Assembly (NCBI GenBank): GCA_045532595.1
Contig: JAZSGG010000008.1
Span: 969-64,968 of the forward strand
Source of the DNA: Oscillospiraceae bacterium
GTDB lineage: Bacteria; Bacillota; Clostridia; Oscillospirales; Ruminococcaceae
Reading direction: 5' to 3'
Length of the DNA stretch: 64,000 nt
Within the stretch, counting starts at the first letter, position 1. Each line of letters begins with the position of its first letter. Under the pieces are notes generated by a model that was not told the DNA's origin, did not search any database, and saw only the letters and a program-made list of their open reading frames with translations. Positions 2,278 to 10,517 of the stretch are shown here, one piece after another. The translations under genes were made by a program, and so were the position numbers.

Positions 2278-4959
2278 CTATTTTCTGATAAACTCCTGTT
2301 TGATCTCAGGAGCGATCTCTGCAATAGGCTCAGGAGCGGGACGTCCTGTATAATAACCCTGAACATAATCAACGCCGAAATCCAGCACAGTTTTAAGTTC
2401 AGCAGCAGTCTCAACGCCCTCCGCAAGCACCTTAATGTTGTTCAGGCGTGCGAAATCAATCGTGCTGTGAACAAACATCTGCTTGTTGACATCCTTATCA
2501 ATATCCTGAATAAGGAAACGGTCGATCTTGATTATCTGTGGCTTATAGCGCATGAGATTTACGATATTGGAATGACCTGCACCGTAATCGTCAATGGCTA
2601 TATCGTTATTGCCATTCACATTGCCGACACTCTTGATAGCAGCAAGCTCTTCGTCAGATACACTGTTCTGCTCGGTAATCTCGAACACAACGTTCTTCAT
2701 CAGACCACCATAACGTTTTACCAGAAGTGCATTATCCTCATCGTTCAGAATGTATCCCGGAATGGAGTTAATAAATACTCTTCTGCCACGGAAGCTTTCC
2801 TGTTCATTCGCATAACGCTCCATAACGTTGAACACAGTTGCCTTTTCAACATCATAAAGACGCTTGTACGCCTGAGCGATCTCAAGCACCTGGAACGGAT
2901 TCATGCCAATGAGCGGATCGGTACGCATGAGAGCCTCATAAGCGTAGATATCACCCGTCTTTGCATCAACGATAGGCTGGAAATGATAGCTGAACATGTT
3001 CTTATCGATCAGAGTGCGGAATGCGCCATAGTTCTCAACAGGAGCCACCTTATCCTTCTGCACCTCGATGATTCCCATCTTGAGGCGGTTCATGTACATC
3101 TCACCGTTTGCAAGAGCAATAAAGCCTGCAAGTGTACCCTCCCATTCGGGATTAACAACAGTACAACCGCAATTCACTTCAATGAAATATTCCTTGCCGC
3201 AGCTGTCGTTATATTTACCCTGCTCCTCAAAGAAGCATGCAGTTGCAGCGTTGATCGTATCGCCTATCTCATCACTGGAATCATAGTAGTTGACAACGAT
3301 GAAATCCTCCTGAGAAATATGTGCGATCATGCAATTCTTGCGATTTGCCATCTTAAGCATTCTTGCAATATTCTTCAGAGCCTCATCCACATCCTTGATA
3401 CCGTAATTCTCATAGATGAAGCGATAATTCGGCAGACCGTAGATCGAAACAGAAAGATACTTCTTCCTGTTATCAGGATCATTATTGAATTCATCAAACC
3501 ACTTTGTCAGGCCCTTAAGATTAGGAAGACCCGTATACTGGTTGATAAGCGTAGCATTCTCAACATCACGCCTGAGAGCATTCTGACGCATAGTTTTCAA
3601 AGTGCAAGTGAACGAGATATTGAGTATCTTACACAGGCGGTTTATCTGCTGAGCAGACATATCTATCTCATCTGTCTTTACTGCGTAGTAACCGCATGCC
3701 TCCGCACCTGCATATATTCCTGTGAACACATACATCTTGTCATCGCTCTCCGCCCATTCACGAAGGTTCGGAGCAACATCCACATAATCAAACTTCTGGA
3801 ACATCTCGATGCCGTCATCATATTTCTGAGAGGATATTGCACACATCTTATCCGTAGCAGAAAGCTTGACATCATTATAAAGATAATCATTATCTTCAAA
3901 AAGTGAAGCCTTCACACATACTGACGAGCATGCCAGTATACAATTATGTGTAAAATCACTGAGCGTCATAAAATCCGCACAGTCGATCATCCTGTCTATC
4001 CATGTGTACATGTACATCTCGTGGCTGTTGGAACTCTGCATGATATTGTATAGATCAGCAGCGTCCTTCGTGATGGATGTGTCAGAAACCTTACAGCCGC
4101 AGGAGCAGGCTATAAGCGGAGTATATGTCTCGGTGAACACACCACAGGAGATAGTACCGATCAGAGAGCCTTCTACCAGTTCCATGCAAAGGCTTACAAG
4201 CTGATCCACATCCTCAAGGCATGTGGTAAGGCGAGGATTATAATACCTCGCATCAGGCATACCATCAAAGCCTGTTACCACAACATCATCGGGAACTGTA
4301 TAACCCCTGACACGCAATTCCTCGCATACGGCGATCGCCATGCTGTCATTAGCACAGAATATCGCCTGCGGCGGTTTCTTTCCACCTGCCAGCAGCTTAT
4401 TGAGTGCAGCTATGGTGGGAAGATCCCAGAACTGACCATAATCCACCTGCTTTGACTTTTCAAAAGGAAGGCCATGCTTTTCAAGCACTCGACGATAGCA
4501 ATCAATTCGATCCTCGGACTGAGGATCACCCTCTATACCTGAGATATAGAAGCTGTCTGTTACATTATGCTCTGTGATAACATGATCGATCACACGCATA
4601 TATGCATCGGTATAATCCTTGATGACAGAATAACAGCCTTCAACCTCTCTGTCCACAACGATGACAGGGATATTTCTGCTGCGTGCACCCTCGATAATAC
4701 CATAGAATATCTCGTCATTGAAGAAATGACGGGAAAAGATAATAAGAGCATCAATAATATCATAATTTATAAGATCATAAACTAATTTTGCGCCGCATTC
4801 ACAATCCTTGGGCTTGTAAAAATCCACTACGCTGTTGAACACCATTACCTTGGTATCAGTGTTTCTGGCAGAATCAAAAAGCTTCTGAACAAATTCAGCG
4901 CGGGCGCGTTCATGAATCTTGGTGACACATACGCCTATAACACGTTTTCCGCCTAACAT
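2278..4959 (-). CDS. LacI-type sugar-binding domain + degenerate GGDEF + EAL c-di-GMP phosphodiesterase
   Basis: N-terminal PQAIFCANDSMAIAV...VPDDVVVTGFDG; GGDEF position reads ISQEDF; EAL motifs YEALMR, FEITE, IDDYGAGHS, IKIDR, AEGVE, QGYY. Confidence 0.88.
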   Translation of the reverse strand: MLGGKRVIGVCVTKIHERARAEFVQKLFDSARNTDTKVMVFNSVVDFYKPKDCECGAKLVYDLINYDIIDALIIFSRHFFNDEIFYGIIEGARSRNIPVIVVDREVEGCYSVIKDYTDAYMRVIDHVITEHNVTDSFYISGIEGDPQSEDRIDCYRRVLEKHGLPFEKSKQVDYGQFWDLPTIAALNKLLAGGKKPPQAIFCANDSMAIAVCEELRVRGYTVPDDVVVTGFDGMPDARYYNPRLTTCLEDVDQLVSLCMELVEGSLIGTISCGVFTETYTPLIACSCGCKVSDTSITKDAADLYNIMQSSNSHEMYMYTWIDRMIDCADFMTLSDFTHNCILACSSVCVKASLFEDNDYLYNDVKLSATDKMCAISSQKYDDGIEMFQKFDYVDVAPNLREWAESDDKMYVFTGIYAGAEACGYYAVKTDEIDMSAQQINRLCKILNISFTCTLKTMRQNALRRDVENATLINQYTGLPNLKGLTKWFDEFNNDPDNRKKYLSVSIYGLPNYRFIYENYGIKDVDEALKNIARMLKMANRKNCMIAHISQEDFIVVNYYDSSDEIGDTINAATACFFEEQGKYNDSCGKEYFIEVNCGCTVVNPEWEGTLAGFIALANGEMYMNRLKMGIIEVQKDKVAPVENYGAFRTLIDKNMFSYHFQPIVDAKTGDIYAYEALMRTDPLIGMNPFQVLEIAQAYKRLYDVEKATVFNVMERYANEQESFRGRRVFINSIPGYILNDEDNALLVKRYGGLMKNVVFEITEQNSVSDEELAAIKSVGNVNGNNDIAIDDYGAGHSNIVNLMRYKPQIIKIDRFLIQDIDKDVNKQMFVHSTIDFARLNNIKVLAEGVETAAELKTVLDFGVDYVQGYYTGRPAPEPIAEIAPEIKQEFIRK

Positions 4960-4996: not shown

Positions 4997-5025
4997 ATTG
5001 TATCATAACAATGCATATTTGTCAA
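4997..5025 (-). promoter_or_regulatory. SigA promoter of the EAL gene
   Basis: TTGACA-17 nt-TACAAT on the minus strand. Confidence 0.75.
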
Positions 5026-5104: not shown

Positions 5105-5133
5105 TTGACAAATTTGTCAAAAAGTATTATAAT
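5105..5133 (+). promoter_or_regulatory. Consensus SigA promoter of the TM1266-ABC operon, with a palindrome over the -35
   Basis: TTGACA(5105-5110)-17 nt-TATAAT(5128-5133); perfect palindrome TTGACAAATTTGTCAA at 5105-5120. Confidence 0.85.
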
Positions 5134-5139
5134 AAGTTT

Positions 5140-5326
5140 GTGAATTAAAAGACAAACTCCCCTGACGCTGAAAGCTTACTGACGGCAAAGCGGAGCTGTC
5201 CGTTCACAGACCTTTTTCTGACGCTGAAACCTATCTTGAAGCGAAAGACACGATGCAACTCTGAATATCTCATGATATCTGCGCCTTTGAGTGTTTTTCG
5301 TCCTAAAAACCTCAGGGCGTTTTTTG
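5140..5326 (+). ncRNA. Candidate cis-regulatory leader RNA (tandem modules plus terminator/antiterminator), class unrecognised
   Basis: Two CTGACGCTGAAA-N-AAGCG modules; intrinsic terminator 5282-5325; competing helix 5241-5251:5291-5301. Confidence 0.65.
5282..5325 (+). terminator. Intrinsic terminator (attenuator) upstream of the first gene
   Basis: CGCCTTTGAGTGTTTTT-cgtcct-AAAAACCTCAGGGCG followed by TTTTTT. Confidence 0.8.
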
Positions 5327-5350
5327 ATATTACTTGAAGGAGCAACTGCT

Positions 5351-5602
5351 ATGGAAGAACTGACCCGTGTCGCAATAATTGCAATGATAATCGAGAATGA
5401 CTCCAGTATCACAACGATCAATGAGCTGCTGCACGAATACAGCCGCTACATCATCGGAAGGATGGGTATCCCCTATCGTGAGAAATCACTCAACATCATC
5501 AATGTGGTGATGGATGCTCCCGCAGATTACATATCCGCTCTTTCAGGCAAGCTTGGCAGGCTGGAAGGCGTCACAGCAAAGGCAGTATATAAAAAGCAGT
5601 GA
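5351..5602 (+). CDS. TM1266-family (iron-only hydrogenase system putative regulator, ACT-like) protein
   Basis: INELLHEYSRYIIGRMGIPYREKSLNIINVVMDAP...ISALSGKLGRLEGVTAK; SD GAAGGAG before ATG 5351. Confidence 0.85.
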   Translation: MEELTRVAIIAMIIENDSSITTINELLHEYSRYIIGRMGIPYREKSLNIINVVMDAPADYISALSGKLGRLEGVTAKAVYKKQ

Positions 5603-5631: not shown

Positions 5632-6774
5632 ATGAAGATGATGAGAACATTCAAGAGCGCTGTTGCAGCTCTGCTTTGCGCTGCACTGCTGACAGGCTGC
5701 GCAGGCAACAGCACAAGCTCCGACACCGCTGCAACAAATGAAGCTTCCACCGTTGCTACCACTGAAGCATCCACAGCAGAGGCTGAGGATACGGCTACAG
5801 CAGAAGCTGCTGTTACCGTTGAAGACATCGTAAGCACTGAAGCTCCCGAGACTGCTGACACAGAAACTGTTGATACCGAGATCTCCTATCCCGAAAGCAT
5901 CAACGTACTTGCTATGAAGGGTCCCACTGCTATGGGCATGACTCAGCTGATGGACGAGGACGAGACAAAGGGCTATCCCTATGAGTTCTCCATCACCGCA
6001 GCTGTTGACGAGATCGCACCCACAGTCATCAAGGGTGAGGCTGATATCATCTGCGTACCTGCTAACCTTGCATCCGTACTCTACAACAAGACCGAGGGCG
6101 GCGTAAAGGTCCTGGCTATCAACACACTTGGTATCCTCTACATCTGCGAGAACGGCTCCACTGTTACATCCATGGAAGATCTCAAGGGCAAGACCATCTA
6201 CGCAAGCGGCAAGGGTGCTACTCCTGAGTATGCTCTGAACTATATTCTCCAGCAGAACGGTATCGACCCCACTAAGGATGTAACAATCGAGTGGAAATCC
6301 GAGCATTCCGAGTGCCTTGCAGCTCTTACAGCTAACGAGGGCAGCGTTGCACTTCTCCCCCAGCCTTTCGTTACAACAGCACAGATGAAGACCGAGGGCA
6401 TCAACGTAGTTATCAACATCACCGAGGAGTGGGAAAAGCTTGACAACGGCTCCGCATGCCTTACCGGTGCAGTTATCGCAAGAACAGCATTTATCGAGGA
6501 GTATCCCGAGGTAGTTGCAGAGTTCATGGAGAGATACGCTGAATCCGTTGAGTTCGTTACAACAAATGTTGCAGAGGGCGCTCAGCTTGTTGGCAAGTAC
6601 GATATCGTTCCCGCAGCAGTGGCTGAAAAGGCAATCCCCGAGTGCAATATCGTATGCATCACAGGCGATGAGATGAAGGAGAAGATGGCAGGCTACCTCA
6701 ACGTTCTTTTCGAGCAGGTAGCAACATCCGTTGGCGGCAAACTTCCCGCAGACGACTTCTACTACATGGGTTGA
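5632..6774 (+). CDS. NitT/TauT-type ABC substrate-binding lipoprotein
   Basis: Lipobox LLTGC, Thr/Ala/Glu-rich linker, KGPTAMG, GKGATPEY motifs; SD GAAAGGA. Confidence 0.85.
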   Translation: MKMMRTFKSAVAALLCAALLTGCAGNSTSSDTAATNEASTVATTEASTAEAEDTATAEAAVTVEDIVSTEAPETADTETVDTEISYPESINVLAMKGPTAMGMTQLMDEDETKGYPYEFSITAAVDEIAPTVIKGEADIICVPANLASVLYNKTEGGVKVLAINTLGILYICENGSTVTSMEDLKGKTIYASGKGATPEYALNYILQQNGIDPTKDVTIEWKSEHSECLAALTANEGSVALLPQPFVTTAQMKTEGINVVINITEEWEKLDNGSACLTGAVIARTAFIEEYPEVVAEFMERYAESVEFVTTNVAEGAQLVGKYDIVPAAVAEKAIPECNIVCITGDEMKEKMAGYLNVLFEQVATSVGGKLPADDFYYMG

Positions 6775-6860: not shown

Positions 6861-7637
6861 ATGAAAAACGGCAGACTCAAAAAGAATCTCATCTCAGCTG
6901 CATGCGTTGCATTCTGGCTTATCGTCTGGCAGATAGCCGCAATGCTGTTATCAATGAAGATCAAGAATCTGCACGTTCTGCTGGCTTCTCCGACAGAGGT
7001 CGCTGTGCGGCTGTGGGAGCTTATTCAGACGGCAGATTTTCTGAAAAGCCTGATGTTCTCGCTTGTAAGGATACTCGGCGGCTTCTTCATAGGTCTTGCG
7101 ATAGGAACAGGACTGGCTGCGCTTTCGGGCAAGATCATGTTCTTCCGCAGACTGTTTGCGCCGCTCATATCTGCCGTTAAATCCATACCCGTGGCAAGCT
7201 TTACAATTCTTGCTCTGATGTGGATAAGCTCCAAAAATCTTTCGGTGCTGATATCTGTGCTTATTGCAATACCCATAGTTTACTCCAATATGCTTGAGGG
7301 CATAGACAGCCTTGATCCAAAGCTGAAAACAATGGCGGATATCTTCCGCATACCTGCTGGAAAGCGGTTTATCGGCGTGTATCTTTCTCAGCTGCTGCCT
7401 TATTTCAGATCTGCATGCAGGCTTGCAATGGGTCTTTGCTGGAAAAGCGGAATCGCTGCTGAAGTTATCGGCATGCCTGATGGTTCTATCGGCGAAAAGC
7501 TGTTCATGTCAAAGGTTTATCTTGAAACAGCAGATCTTTTCGCATGGACGCTGATAATAATCCTGCTCAGCTTCGTGTGCGAGAAGCTGTTCATGGCTCT
7601 GGTGGACTTCATCGTCCGCCGTGTGGAACGCATGTAA
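6861..7637 (+). CDS. NitT/TauT ABC permease
   Basis: Hydrophobic; SIPVASF, EAA-like loop, WKSGIAAEVIG. Confidence 0.88.
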   Translation: MKNGRLKKNLISAACVAFWLIVWQIAAMLLSMKIKNLHVLLASPTEVAVRLWELIQTADFLKSLMFSLVRILGGFFIGLAIGTGLAALSGKIMFFRRLFAPLISAVKSIPVASFTILALMWISSKNLSVLISVLIAIPIVYSNMLEGIDSLDPKLKTMADIFRIPAGKRFIGVYLSQLLPYFRSACRLAMGLCWKSGIAAEVIGMPDGSIGEKLFMSKVYLETADLFAWTLIIILLSFVCEKLFMALVDFIVRRVERM

Positions 7638-7648
7638 GGAGGGAGAAT

Positions 7649-8221
7649 ATGACGCTTATCGCTAATAACATCTGCAAAAGCTTCGGCGAAAAAAAGGTGC
7701 TTCAGGATCTCTCTTATAAGTTCCCCGACGGTAGCTTCACCGCTGTGATGGGACCCTCGGGCTGCGGTAAATCAACACTGCTTGCAATATTGATGGGTAC
7801 GCTTTCTCCCGACAGCGGCAACATAGAACCTGACACCGAATACAGAAAGAGTGCTGTGTTTCAGGAAAACAGGCTGTGCGAAAACCTCACGGCCGGAGCA
7901 AATATCCGACTTGTTACGGGAAAACGCTTTTCCCCTGCGGAGATAGAAAAAGAACTTGCTGCACTTGGACTTCAGGATTGCCTGAATACTCCCGTAAAGC
8001 AGCTGAGCGGCGGCATGAAACGGCGTGTAGCTCTGCTGAGAGCTTTATTGGCAGAATACGATGTGTTGTTTCTTGACGAGCCGTTCAAGGGTCTTGACGA
8101 GGTAACAAAGGCGCTTGTTATCGAGCGAGTCAAAGAAAAGACCGCAGGCAGAACGGTGATCATGGTAACACATGACGCCGAGGAATGCAATGCTCTTGCA
8201 CAGAACGTAATTAAAATGTAA
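7649..8221 (+). CDS. ABC ATP-binding protein (NitT/TauT)
   Basis: GPSGCGKST, LSGGMKRR, LFLDEPF; SD GGAGGG before ATG 7649. Confidence 0.9.
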   Translation: MTLIANNICKSFGEKKVLQDLSYKFPDGSFTAVMGPSGCGKSTLLAILMGTLSPDSGNIEPDTEYRKSAVFQENRLCENLTAGANIRLVTGKRFSPAEIEKELAALGLQDCLNTPVKQLSGGMKRRVALLRALLAEYDVLFLDEPFKGLDEVTKALVIERVKEKTAGRTVIMVTHDAEECNALAQNVIKM

Positions 8222-8252: not shown

Positions 8253-8333
8253 AATTATGCTGAAATATCATATTCTGCATATATTCGCCTTTTCGGGAAA
8301 ATATAGTACCGACTGAATATGTCAAGGAGGAAT

Positions 8334-10517
8334 ATGATGAACGGCATAAATAAGAACATATCCGTGCGATCTCCGCTGAATGGCAGAGTCGTGAGCCTTT
8401 CAGAGGTTTCGGACACTGTTTTTTCCGAAAAGATACTGGGTGACGGCTGCGCTGTTATCCCGACCGACGGAAAGATATACAGCCCTGTAGACGGCGTGAT
8501 ATCTTCCGTTGCCGAGACTAAGCACGCTTACGGCTTCACAACTGATGAGGGCGTTGAGATACTGGTGCATTTCGGATTGGAGACTGTGTCACTGAACGGA
8601 AACGGATTCATTTCCCATGTAAAAGAAGGCGCAAGAATCAAAGCAGGCGACCTTGTGGCAGAGGCTGACATGGAGCTAATGCAGGAGAAAGGGCTTGACA
8701 CGATCACGTCTGTAATCATTACAGGTGGTTGCGAAGGCTACGATATGCAGGTGGATATCGGTGACATAAAAGTCGGCGATGAGCTTATCAAACTCATCCC
8801 AAACGAAGCGCCCGGCGAGAAGCTTGCCGCTGCAGGCACAGAAGAAGTCCCCGTTGATGATCCTGAGAAGGAGAAAAAACACGGCAAGGGCTTCGATCTG
8901 CTGCAGAAGCTTGGCAAGGTGCTTATGACCGTAATCGCTGTAATGCCTGCGGCAGGTCTCATGATAAGCATCGGCAAGCTTATTGCAATGACAGGCGGCG
9001 ATATCGCTGTTTTAGCAACGATCGGAAGCATTATGGAAAACATCGGCTGGGCGATAATCGGCAATCTGCACATCCTTTTTGCCGTTTCCATCGGAGGCAG
9101 CTGGGCAAAGGAAAAAGCGGGCGGCGCATTTGCTGCGCTGCTTGCATTCATCCTGATAAACAGTGTAACAGGAGCGATATTCGGTGTTTCCTCAGATATG
9201 CTGGCCGACCCTGAGGCTGTGACTTATTCGCTTTTCGGGCAGGAGATGTTAGTATCAAATTACTTTACTTCTGTACTGGGTGCGCCTGCGCTCAACATGG
9301 GCGTTTTTGTGGGCATCATATCAGGCTTTGTGGGCGGTATTGTCTACAATAAGTTCTACAACTTCCGAAAGCTGCCCGAAGCACTCTCCTTCTTCAACGG
9401 AAAGAGATTCGTGCCGCTGGTTGTCATTCTGTGGTCTGTGATAGTTTCGCTGGTGTTGGCGGTGATCTGGCCTGTCATTCAGTCGGGCATCAACGCATTC
9501 GGTATATGGATAGCGGATTCCGCAGACACATCTCCCCTGCTTGCGCCGTTTATCTACGGCACACTGGAAAGACTGCTCCTGCCTTTCGGTCTGCATCATA
9601 TGCTGACTATCCCGATGAACTACACAAGCTTCGGCGGCAGCTATATCATTCAGACAGGCGCATCCGCAGGAACAACAGTATTCGGTCAGGATCCGTTGTG
9701 GCTTGCATGGATAACAGATCTTATCAACTTCAGAAACGCAGGTGATACCGCTGCTTATGAGGCGCTTCTGACCTCAGTTACACCTGCCAGATTCAAGGTA
9801 GGACAAATGATAGGCTCAACAGGACTTCTGCTCGGCATTGCGCTTGCAATGTACCGCAGAGTGGACAAGGACAAGCGAAAGGATTACCGCTCCATGTTCG
9901 TATCAACAGCACTGGCGGTGTTCCTTACAGGCGTTACAGAGCCGATAGAGTTCATGTTTATGTTCTGCGCACTGCCGCTGTATATCGTGTATGCGATTTT
10001 ACAGGGTCTTGCATTCGCACTTTCGGATGTGATAGATCTGAGGCTACACTCCTTCGGCAATCTTGAATTTCTGACACGAGTTCCGATGTCAGTGCAGGCA
10101 GGTCTTGCAGGTGATATCATCAACTTCCTGATAAGCTGCGTTGCTTTCCTTGTGATAGGTTATTTTGTGGCGTACTTCATGATAGGAAGATTCGGTTATG
10201 CAACACCCGGACGTCTCGGAAACTACACTGCAGGCGGCGGAGATGATGACGCACCACGCAGCCCCAACGGCGTATCCTCAGCCGACAGTCAGGCTGAACG
10301 CATTATAGCACTGCTGGGTGGCAGGGAGAATATCACCCTTGTGGACGCATGCATGACAAGGCTGCGAGTGACAGTGAAGGATCCCACGCTTGTTGCGGAT
10401 GCAGACAGATGGAAGGCAGAAGGCGCTCTCGGTCTCGTAAAAAAAGGAGAAGGCATTCAAGCTATATACGGGCCTAAAGCTGACATCCTGAAATCCGACA
10501 TCAACGATATTTTATAG
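8334..10517 (+). CDS. PTS glucose/maltose-family transporter, fused EIIA-EIIC-EIIB
   Basis: EIIA LVHFGLETV; EIIC ERLLLPFGLHH, GVTEPIEF; EIIB DACMTRLR; SD AGGAGG. Confidence 0.92.
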   Translation: MMNGINKNISVRSPLNGRVVSLSEVSDTVFSEKILGDGCAVIPTDGKIYSPVDGVISSVAETKHAYGFTTDEGVEILVHFGLETVSLNGNGFISHVKEGARIKAGDLVAEADMELMQEKGLDTITSVIITGGCEGYDMQVDIGDIKVGDELIKLIPNEAPGEKLAAAGTEEVPVDDPEKEKKHGKGFDLLQKLGKVLMTVIAVMPAAGLMISIGKLIAMTGGDIAVLATIGSIMENIGWAIIGNLHILFAVSIGGSWAKEKAGGAFAALLAFILINSVTGAIFGVSSDMLADPEAVTYSLFGQEMLVSNYFTSVLGAPALNMGVFVGIISGFVGGIVYNKFYNFRKLPEALSFFNGKRFVPLVVILWSVIVSLVLAVIWPVIQSGINAFGIWIADSADTSPLLAPFIYGTLERLLLPFGLHHMLTIPMNYTSFGGSYIIQTGASAGTTVFGQDPLWLAWITDLINFRNAGDTAAYEALLTSVTPARFKVGQMIGSTGLLLGIALAMYRRVDKDKRKDYRSMFVSTALAVFLTGVTEPIEFMFMFCALPLYIVYAILQGLAFALSDVIDLRLHSFGNLEFLTRVPMSVQAGLAGDIINFLISCVAFLVIGYFVAYFMIGRFGYATPGRLGNYTAGGGDDDAPRSPNGVSSADSQAERIIALLGGRENITLVDACMTRLRVTVKDPTLVADADRWKAEGALGLVKKGEGIQAIYGPKADILKSDINDIL

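Follow-up and report, generated by a model that had tools for sequence, protein, structure and literature searches.

Among the described systems that most resemble the locus examined here is the pyr operon of Bacillus subtilis, in which a hairpin stabilised by a protein serves as anti-antiterminator ahead of an antiterminator/terminator pair and the regulator, PyrR, is encoded within the operon, with RNA sites lying before pyrR and in the intercistronic gap just after it. HutP and TRAP, of the hut and trp operons, are small ligand-activated oligomers acting on repeated short leader RNA elements that decide termination, and hutP sits just before its RNA site. In the present study we analysed a stretch of 64,000 nucleotides (nt) from an Oscillospiraceae bacterium (contig JAZSGG010000008.1 of assembly GCA_045532595.1, positions 969 to 64,968), hereafter the window, in which a leader with two hairpin modules precedes a small gene of the TM1266 family and the genes of an ATP-binding cassette (ABC) transporter. 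Comparative sequence evidence leads us to favour, with a probability of about 0.5, a reading in which this leader is an attenuator built on an undescribed RNA hairpin and the hairpin would be the binding site of the adjacently encoded TM1266 protein. The motif has the same two placements around TM1266 as the PyrR sites have around pyrR, and the same OFF logic; the RNA sequences and structures are unrelated, however, and PyrR is a phosphoribosyltransferase in fold, whereas that of TM1266 is ACT/NikR-C-like, with RNA binding as a proposal made here. TM1266 and the motif can likewise be compared with HutP and TRAP, but these proteins read single-stranded triplet repeats rather than a structured tandem-G.A hairpin and show no kinship with TM1266 in sequence or fold, and HutP is an antiterminator, whereas stabilisation of the hairpin in the window favours termination.

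The leader is preceded by a sigma-70 promoter (TTGACA-17 nt-TATAAT, 5105-5133; this and the following features are on the + strand unless stated otherwise) with 12/12 matches, which is kept in the relatives L002-L004, L047 and L048. Transcription probably starts near 5140, and the leader measures 217 nt from the -10 box to the first ATG of the TM1266 gene at 5351. A prediction made earlier from the sequence alone (the original prediction) had placed about 210 nt between a consensus promoter and this ATG, and had described two leader modules in a tandem arrangement, module 1 being set on basal stems (GACA/TGTC, CTC/GAG and GTGAAT/GTTCAC). All of this agrees with the present analysis, as set out below, with the exception of one helix in module 1.

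The hairpin was defined by comparison with a set of 126 loci collected around TM1266 homologues. Many of their leaders share the structure 5'-(P0)-CUGA-[P1, 4 base pairs (bp)]-GAAA-loop-UUGA-[P1']-RAAG-(P0')-3', in which the loop is 5-12 nt long or is replaced by a small extra helix. Tandem purine mismatches (G.A/A.G or G.A/A.A) border P1 on either side and are followed by U-A pairs, and each strand of the hairpin reads YUGA-N4-RAAR; the duplex is nearly two-fold symmetric, since the tandem mismatches flank P1 on both strands alike. A pattern scan of one genome per species, in which the unpaired core was fixed and two P1 positions were left free as purine or pyrimidine (R/Y) on both strands, yielded at least 120 instances. 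The scan covers one sequence subclass of the motif and its counts include related genomes; the counts out of 120 given below, and those derived from them, are counts among the matches listed. These matches come mostly from Oscillospiraceae, Lachnospiraceae and Ruminococcus, with some from Victivallales/Lentisphaeria, Flexilinea and Peptococcaceae.

Both free positions of P1 covary. The first is A-U in 69 matches, G-C in 40, G.U in six and A.C in five (Fisher p 7e-20, kinship ignored), and the second is C-G in 74, U-A in 43, U.G in two and C.A in one (Fisher p 6e-29, again ignoring kinship). A second, pattern-independent sample of 35 model matches from the TM1266-centred loci comprised 96.6% canonical cells and three pairs changed on both sides; its covariation score was reached by 0/500 shuffles and collapsed when the pairing partners were shifted by one to three columns. 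Both the sequence and the register of P0 vary, and its changes appear compensatory by eye (UCCGUA/UACGGA, CUCGUA/UACGGG, CUGUA/UACAG, GCAUC/GGUGC or GAUGC), while the unpaired core nucleotides are strictly conserved across the alignment. The conservation and covariation in related leaders that a switch of the predicted kind should leave are therefore seen.

A structured, conserved core with invariant unpaired nucleotides and a covarying helix is equally what a true riboswitch would present. The tandem-G.A hairpin would then bind a small molecule or metal directly (e.g. Fe2+ or an H-cluster/iron/sulfur metabolite) and so be stabilised, leading to termination, an explanation that we regard as the main rival, possible but rather unlikely. 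The sequence of the distal block, UGA-G...C-GAA, may speak for it in that it is the same as that of the divalent-metal site A9/G10.1 of the hammerhead; the very small size of the hairpin, its near symmetry, its variable loop and the lack of any sign of tertiary contacts speak against it. The likeness to hammerhead domain 2 and to the NC stem of the kink-turn lies in 5'-UGA-3'/5'-GAA-3' blocks beside a G-C pair, whereas the motif is without a three-way junction, a cleavage-site context or a 3-nt bulge, and no such Rfam family matched it. A hammerhead was accordingly rejected on anatomy from the alignment, and a kink-turn of the kind bound by L7Ae/YbxF was rejected because both mismatch blocks are symmetric 2x2 loops lacking the 3-nt bulge.

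Searches against Rfam 15 (4227 models) at gathering thresholds gave 0 matches in the 64-kb window and 0 in 18 related loci, and at E<=10 the leader and a canonical relative matched only low-scoring unrelated families (long non-coding RNA, small RNA, CRISPR repeat and similar), far below thresholds. These searches exclude the known riboswitches, hammerheads, T-box, ribosomal leaders and the NMT1 (xanthine) motif, and we found no description of the motif in the literature searched. The data thus support the leader element as new, conserved and structured, and outside Rfam 15, in keeping with the earlier impression that it lacked the signatures of known classes.

Within the window leader an exact 12-mer, CTGACGCTGAAA (= CUGACGCUGAAA), starts at 5162 and again at 5218, with no further copy in the window. 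The second occurrence opens module 2 (5218-5247), the canonical copy of the motif, which consists of CUGA (5218-5221), the P1 5' strand CGCU (5222-5225), GAAA (5226-5229), the loop CCUAUC (5230-5235), UUGA (5236-5239), the P1 3' strand AGCG (5240-5243) and AAAG (5244-5247), P1 being the helix that covaries across the family. It was recognised by a covariance model, R1, built from 110 of the pattern-scan sequences; R1 is narrow, and the window's clade was excluded from it, as this clade lies outside the pattern (module 2 has UGAA where the pattern demanded UGAG). The match to module 2 (5210-5259; 40.1 bits, E 4.7e-8) is the sole significant R1 match in the window, the next best scoring 10.8 bits, and the homologues of module 2 in L003 and L004 score 21 and 25 bits, respectively. 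Module 2 therefore belongs to a widespread conserved RNA motif.

Module 1 (5162-5190) is a diverged copy. It comprises CUGA (5162-5165), a bulged C (5166), the helix GCUG (5167-5170) paired with CGGC (5183-5186), an AA/GA mismatch block, AG/CU pairs, the loop CUUA (5175-5178), CUGA (5179-5182) and AAAG (5187-5190). Folding indicates that its helix is slipped by one register relative to the canonical motif, hence the bulged C, and the GCUG/CGGC helix carries a compensatory double change from G-C to A-U in the relative L002. The original prediction was right in seeing two copies, and in pairing CGCU with AGCG in module 2; the same pairing in module 1, with AGCG at 5189-5192, has to be given up in favour of GCUG/CGGC, since it would be broken in L002 and both folding and L002 support the alternative. 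Module 1 of the window has no R1 match at E<=10. We nevertheless identify it as a copy of the motif because it is homologous to module 1 of L003, which scores 34.3 bits with R1 (that of L004 scores 16.5 bits), and because it matches a strict structural descriptor (CUGA, a stem of at least 3 bp, RAA...UGA, the complementary stem and AAR, with a spacing of at most 30 nt). On both strands of the 64-kb window a loose descriptor gave five matches, three of them within the leader, and the strict descriptor gave two, which are exactly modules 1 and 2. This, together with the independent match of the covariance model to module 2, places the modules beyond chance.

Module 1 is enclosed by a basal helix (5140-5206) formed by GUGAAU/GUUCAC (5140-5145/5201-5206), GACA/UGUC (5151-5154/5197-5200) and CUCC/GGAG (5157-5160/5192-5195). 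It is present in the minimum-energy folds, and in L003 (UCAGA/UCUGA and UUGUG/CACAA) and L004 (AUAUCAG/CUGAUAU) the sequence differs and the complementarity is retained, so that the predicted basal stems are backed by compensatory change. The leaders of the window, L002, L003 and L004 can be aligned end to end, and a tandem arrangement is supported in this clade by two R1-detectable copies in both L003 and L004. Tandem copies are otherwise exceptional: R1 gives one match per locus in 100 pattern-scan loci, with a second detectable copy in none, and two copies were seen by eye in two further lineages (L117/L081 and L094/L116). A single leader with two similar modules and one terminator platform recalls the tandem riboswitches, such as those for glycine (reviewed in PMC9481103), from which the present element differs in that no Rfam riboswitch matches the motif and that tandem copies are exceptional in its family. 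Were the element a riboswitch, the two window modules would be tandem aptamers giving a steeper response. As the 5' strands of the two modules are an identical 12-mer (5162-5173 and 5218-5229), the 3' strand of module 1 (5179-5190) could also pair with the 5' strand of module 2, as a cross hit between the two modules illustrates, a possible third conformation that would free the 3' strand of module 2 for the antiterminator.

In the window, module 2 alone appears to be connected to the expression platform. An intrinsic terminator (5281-5325) is formed by an interrupted stem (5281-5319, -16.7 kcal/mol) followed by U6 (5320-5325). The competing antiterminator pairs GCGAAAGACAC (5241-5251), which overlaps the P1 3' strand and AAAG of module 2, with GUGUUUUUCGU (5291-5301), from which the terminator takes its loop and the upper part of its 5' strand. 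This duplex has 11 bp and a free energy of -15.7 kcal/mol, compared with only -6.5 kcal/mol for the module 2 hairpin alone, and it is the minimum-energy fold of 5214-5303, that is, of the nascent RNA before the terminator 3' strand exists. Both the U-tailed terminator and the antiterminator of the original prediction were thus recovered by computation.

The same architecture is found across the family. A terminator, called as a U-tract preceded by a hairpin at least as stable as -8 kcal/mol, follows the motif in 109/115 instances among the matches listed with enough downstream sequence, and the median distance between motif end and U-tract is 68 nt. When the 3' segment of the motif (the P1 3' strand, RAAG and a 14-nt tail) was paired with terminator 5' strands from these 109 leaders, the mean was -12.3 kcal/mol for cognate and -9.4 kcal/mol for non-cognate combinations (permutation p about 2e-4). 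The pairing involves the final base of P1, RAAG and the 6-7 nt that follow, positions that are in use in 60-80% of leaders. Because the antiterminator pairing uses the motif's own 3' strand, folding of the hairpin and of the antiterminator are mutually exclusive, and because this strand pairs preferentially with the 5' strand of its own terminator, the logic is that of an OFF switch. It is thus highly probable that the leader is a conserved cis-acting attenuator with OFF logic, and the aptamer/antiterminator/terminator arrangement proposed for the window is borne out by the cognate pairing as well as by the window energetics.

Metatranscriptome contigs from two runs cover the coding region alone, at a depth of 2-4, and are therefore silent on switching, which leaves some room for a constitutive structure (a stabiliser, processing site or pause hairpin) placed before a leaky terminator and sensing nothing. 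The specific complementarity of the motif 3' strand to its own terminator and the strict conservation of the unpaired nucleotides argue instead for a regulated choice between two folds, and we consider a constitutive role very improbable. Leader-peptide attenuation was also rejected. By eye, the only ATG frames in the leader are one of 3 codons and one of 21 codons (from about 5272), no Shine-Dalgarno sequence was seen before them, and the surrounding spacer, like the small hairpin AUAUC-UCAU-GAUAU that it contains (5265-5278), is conserved in the closest relatives only.

A different arrangement was observed in L017, L019, L023 and L029, which are gut metagenome-assembled genome (MAG) loci labelled Alphaproteobacteria, and in L024. 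Here a motif-like hairpin, C[U/C]GAC-UCC-AAAG-A6-CUGA-GGA-AAAGG, is situated some 40 nt ahead of the TM1266 ATG; only 3 nt separate its end from the AUG, and the Shine-Dalgarno sequence falls within it. It may tentatively be viewed as a translational version of the switch, with folds no more stable than those of shuffled sequences. L024 is a MAG bin labelled Limosilactobacillus gorillae that carries TM1266, and it probably reflects mis-binning, contamination or transfer, being near-identical to the gut loci labelled Alphaproteobacteria. Both TM1266 and the motif are present on a contig labelled Loigolactobacillus rennini DSM 20253 (L130). Terminators in most copies and an apparent platform sequestering the ribosome-binding site in one lineage constitute a mix typical of riboswitches, and count in favour of direct ligand sensing.

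The most constant feature of the motif's surroundings is the TM1266 gene itself. It starts at most 450 nt downstream of the motif in 76/120 matches, ends just upstream on the same strand in 30/120 (median of 34.5 nt from the stop codon to CUGA), lies elsewhere in the 8-kb block in 0/120 and was not detected in 14/120. These last comprise three chance-like matches (L147, L222 and L227), seven situated too near the end of the block and four genuine exceptions (L128, L135, L150 and L212), so that 106 of about 110 assessable copies (about 96%, relatedness not weighted) abut a TM1266 gene. Such constancy was seen for no other gene, and the downstream genes vary (hydE, hydF, hydG, ABC and nifH-like). 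In the 30 upstream cases TM1266 stands outside the regulated unit, immediately before the hairpin, and the gene behind the motif is hydF, hydE, an ABC gene or a nifH-like gene; this 'TM1266-motif-X' order is that of hutP, which lies immediately upstream of its RNA target.

If the hairpin were a riboswitch, TM1266 would only be its most frequent co-regulated gene. At least four copies without an adjacent TM1266 are compatible with this, but it leaves unexplained why nearly all assessable copies touch one 80-aa gene, on either side, and why in 30 of them that gene is outside the regulated unit, about 35 nt upstream; before hyd operons lacking an adjacent TM1266, moreover, the motif was found in two cases only (L128 and L212). 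Several protein families with no kinship to one another recognise tandem G.A motifs, and another trans-acting factor (a different protein or a small RNA) might bind the hairpin, with TM1266 a passenger in cofactor maturation. We judge this improbable, TM1266 being the sole constant neighbour of the motif. The TM1266 protein is favoured as the hairpin binder because adjacency on either side is typical of RNA-binding attenuation proteins and unexpected for a metabolite riboswitch, because a short RNA duplex with near two-fold symmetry would suit an oligomer, and because the fold of the protein is a ligand-sensing one without a known output domain. The original prediction had left the choice between a riboswitch and a site for an RNA-binding protein such as the TM1266 product; the second option is the one favoured here, and it draws on the correlation that 106 of the 120 listed copies abut TM1266.

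The genes gated by the motif extend well beyond those of the window. Operons with TM1266 behind the motif include TM1266-hydE-hydG-hydF, TM1266-hydG, TM1266-hydE-ABC and TM1266-nifH-like, and the motif is also found directly before hydF, hydE, iron-chelate/B12-type ABC permeases, SsuA-like binding proteins and nifH-like genes, several of the directly preceded units having two NifD/K-like genes further downstream. In L166, L195, L221, L135, L210 and L154, hydE or hydF often occurs with a NifH/CfbC-like ATPase and two NifD/K-like (Oxidored_nitro) genes, and an iron-chelate/B12-type ABC transporter (FecCD permease, Peripla_BP_2) is present in motif-gated operons as well. These neighbourhoods suggest that a nitrogenase-like system may be co-regulated with the H-cluster maturases. 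Specific control of a TM1266-ABC operon, as first envisaged from the window, is therefore too narrow a description, the motif also standing before hydE, hydF, hydG, nifH-like and iron-chelate-type ABC genes; and the substrate of the NitT/TauT transporter, which had been put forward as ligand, is unlikely to be one, because most motif copies control hyd genes. The coherence of this regulon (hydE/F/G, iron-chelate-type and SsuA-like ABC transporters, NifH/NifDK-like proteins) is what a riboswitch might be expected to show, although switching off the H-cluster maturases at high iron would make poor physiological sense.

The TM1266 gene of the window (5351-5602, 83 aa) is preceded by the ribosome-binding site GAAGGAG (5337-5343), as read from the sequence. 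Its product matches PF21699 with 107.5 bits (cut-off 27), TIGR03959 with 108.5 bits (cut-off 60.8) and PDB 2NZC with an E-value of 5e-13. The family is large, with 7620 clusters at E<=1e-10, and very conserved, and its invariant residues include R6, N24, R37-M38-G39, P41, G66, G69, G73 and K77, together with Gly-rich loops. This conservation, notably of the Arg and Lys residues R6, R37 and K77, counts in favour of the proposed role. A structural model (predicted local distance difference test 94.6) superposes on 2NZC, the solved and uncharacterised Thermotoga maritima protein (T. maritima), with a TM-score normalised to the query of 0.88-0.90, and on NikR C-domains with 0.78-0.85; ACT domains are matched too. 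The NikR C-terminal and ACT domains are ligand-sensing oligomerisation modules of regulators. The 2NZC structure has four chains, and the NikR C-domains, its nearest folds, are tetrameric and bind nickel. TM1266 differs from NikR in having no DNA-binding domain (no ribbon-helix-helix), and recognition of RNA would put this fold to a new use. In two alignments H28 is invariant or nearly so and there is no invariant cysteine column; a NikR-like set of nickel-binding residues was not seen in these alignments, a comparison with NikR that was not made residue by residue. For years TM1266 has been annotated only as a 'putative regulator' of the iron-only hydrogenase system, a label that appears to rest on its likeness to NikR and on its hyd-gene neighbourhood. 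We found no functional study of TM1266 in the literature searched, only mentions in gene lists, and nothing there on the regulation of HydE/F/G maturation or on a riboswitch associated with hydE/F/G. Among cultured species, Clostridioides difficile encodes a TM1266 protein (PMC11633334), and the gene name also appears in a paper on Clostridium sporogenes.

Several observations weigh against TM1266 as the binder. The closest structural relatives of the protein are metal- or amino-acid-binding regulatory domains rather than RNA binders, and the fold search of the model returned, as RNA-binding relatives, only weak matches to ribosomal protein S6 (one free, one in a ribosome structure). By eye, the window protein has 10 acidic and 10 basic residues and is thus almost uncharged overall. 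A small hairpin of high conservation combined with varying expression platforms is a pattern that riboswitches typically show as well. The adjacency of gene and motif is correlative, and its counts include related genomes and come from a pattern scan of one sequence subclass. The converse association is looser: the motif or a by-eye variant occurs at at least 55/126 TM1266 loci, others being internal operon genes or without motif, and at the TM1266-centred loci the strict descriptor or R1 finds no motif beside about half of the TM1266 genes. The census descriptor is crude and misses variants visible by eye, which occur at many of the motif-negative loci, so that 55/126 is a lower bound.

Under the favoured reading, the more stable antiterminator would, without the factor, displace the weak hairpin during transcription and the operon would be read through. 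A factor clamping the hairpin would let the terminator form, and transcription would stop before TM1266 and the ABC transporter genes. The clamping factor would be an oligomer of TM1266, with its ACT/NikR-C-like fold and probably loaded with a small effector, as in PyrR or TRAP. Module 1, mounted on its long basal helix from the 5' end of the transcript, may provide a second site for cooperative binding in the window clade, and elsewhere the same hairpin would gate hydE, hydF, hydG, nifH-like and ABC-transporter genes.

Downstream of TM1266 in the window lie the genes of the NitT/TauT-type (SsuA-like) ABC transporter: a lipoprotein-type substrate-binding protein (5632-6774; domain and PDB sequence searches), a permease (6861-7637; domain searches) and an ATPase (7544-8221 as the listed open reading frame, with an ATG near 7649 as the likely start). 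The relatives of the binding protein in the PDB sequence search were of the nitrate and sulfonate types only, which gives no clue to the ligand. Homologues of hydE, hydF, hydG, nifH-like and FecCD genes were found nowhere in the 64-kb window, where TM1266 and its leader serve the SsuA-like ABC transporter only. Directly 3' of the ABC operon, and unrelated to it, a 732-aa phosphotransferase system (PTS) protein (8319-10517) has the unusual domain order IIA-IIC-IIB and matches TIGR02003 ('PTS-II-BC-unk1') with 895 bits. Divergent from the leader, an 893-aa protein (2278-4959, - strand) combines a periplasmic-binding-protein/LacI-like sensor with GGDEF and EAL domains (cyclic di-GMP turnover) and is served by a separate promoter close to consensus (TTGACA-17-TACAAT, TG-extended, 4997-5025, - strand).

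Taken furthest, the favoured reading implies that TM1266, with its ACT/NikR-C-like fold, would be the founding member of a new class of attenuation proteins that bind RNA; as an oligomer it would clamp a tandem-G.A hairpin and thereby switch off H-cluster maturases (hydE/F/G), nitrogenase-like proteins and ABC importers in gut Clostridia and Victivallales; we advance this only tentatively, at slightly less than even odds. The maturation of [FeFe]-hydrogenases by HydE/F/G has been intensively studied biochemically, and if the proposal is true the attenuator would be the first known regulatory circuit for this process. Its travelling with TM1266 yields a testable hypothesis, namely TM1266 together with a 30-nt hairpin, and suggests that, besides the hyd genes, the regulon takes in nitrogenase-like proteins and ABC importers of two kinds. 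The element would either give the ACT/NikR fold a new role, in RNA binding, or represent a new class of riboswitch, in hosts that are abundant hydrogen producers of the gut and rumen.

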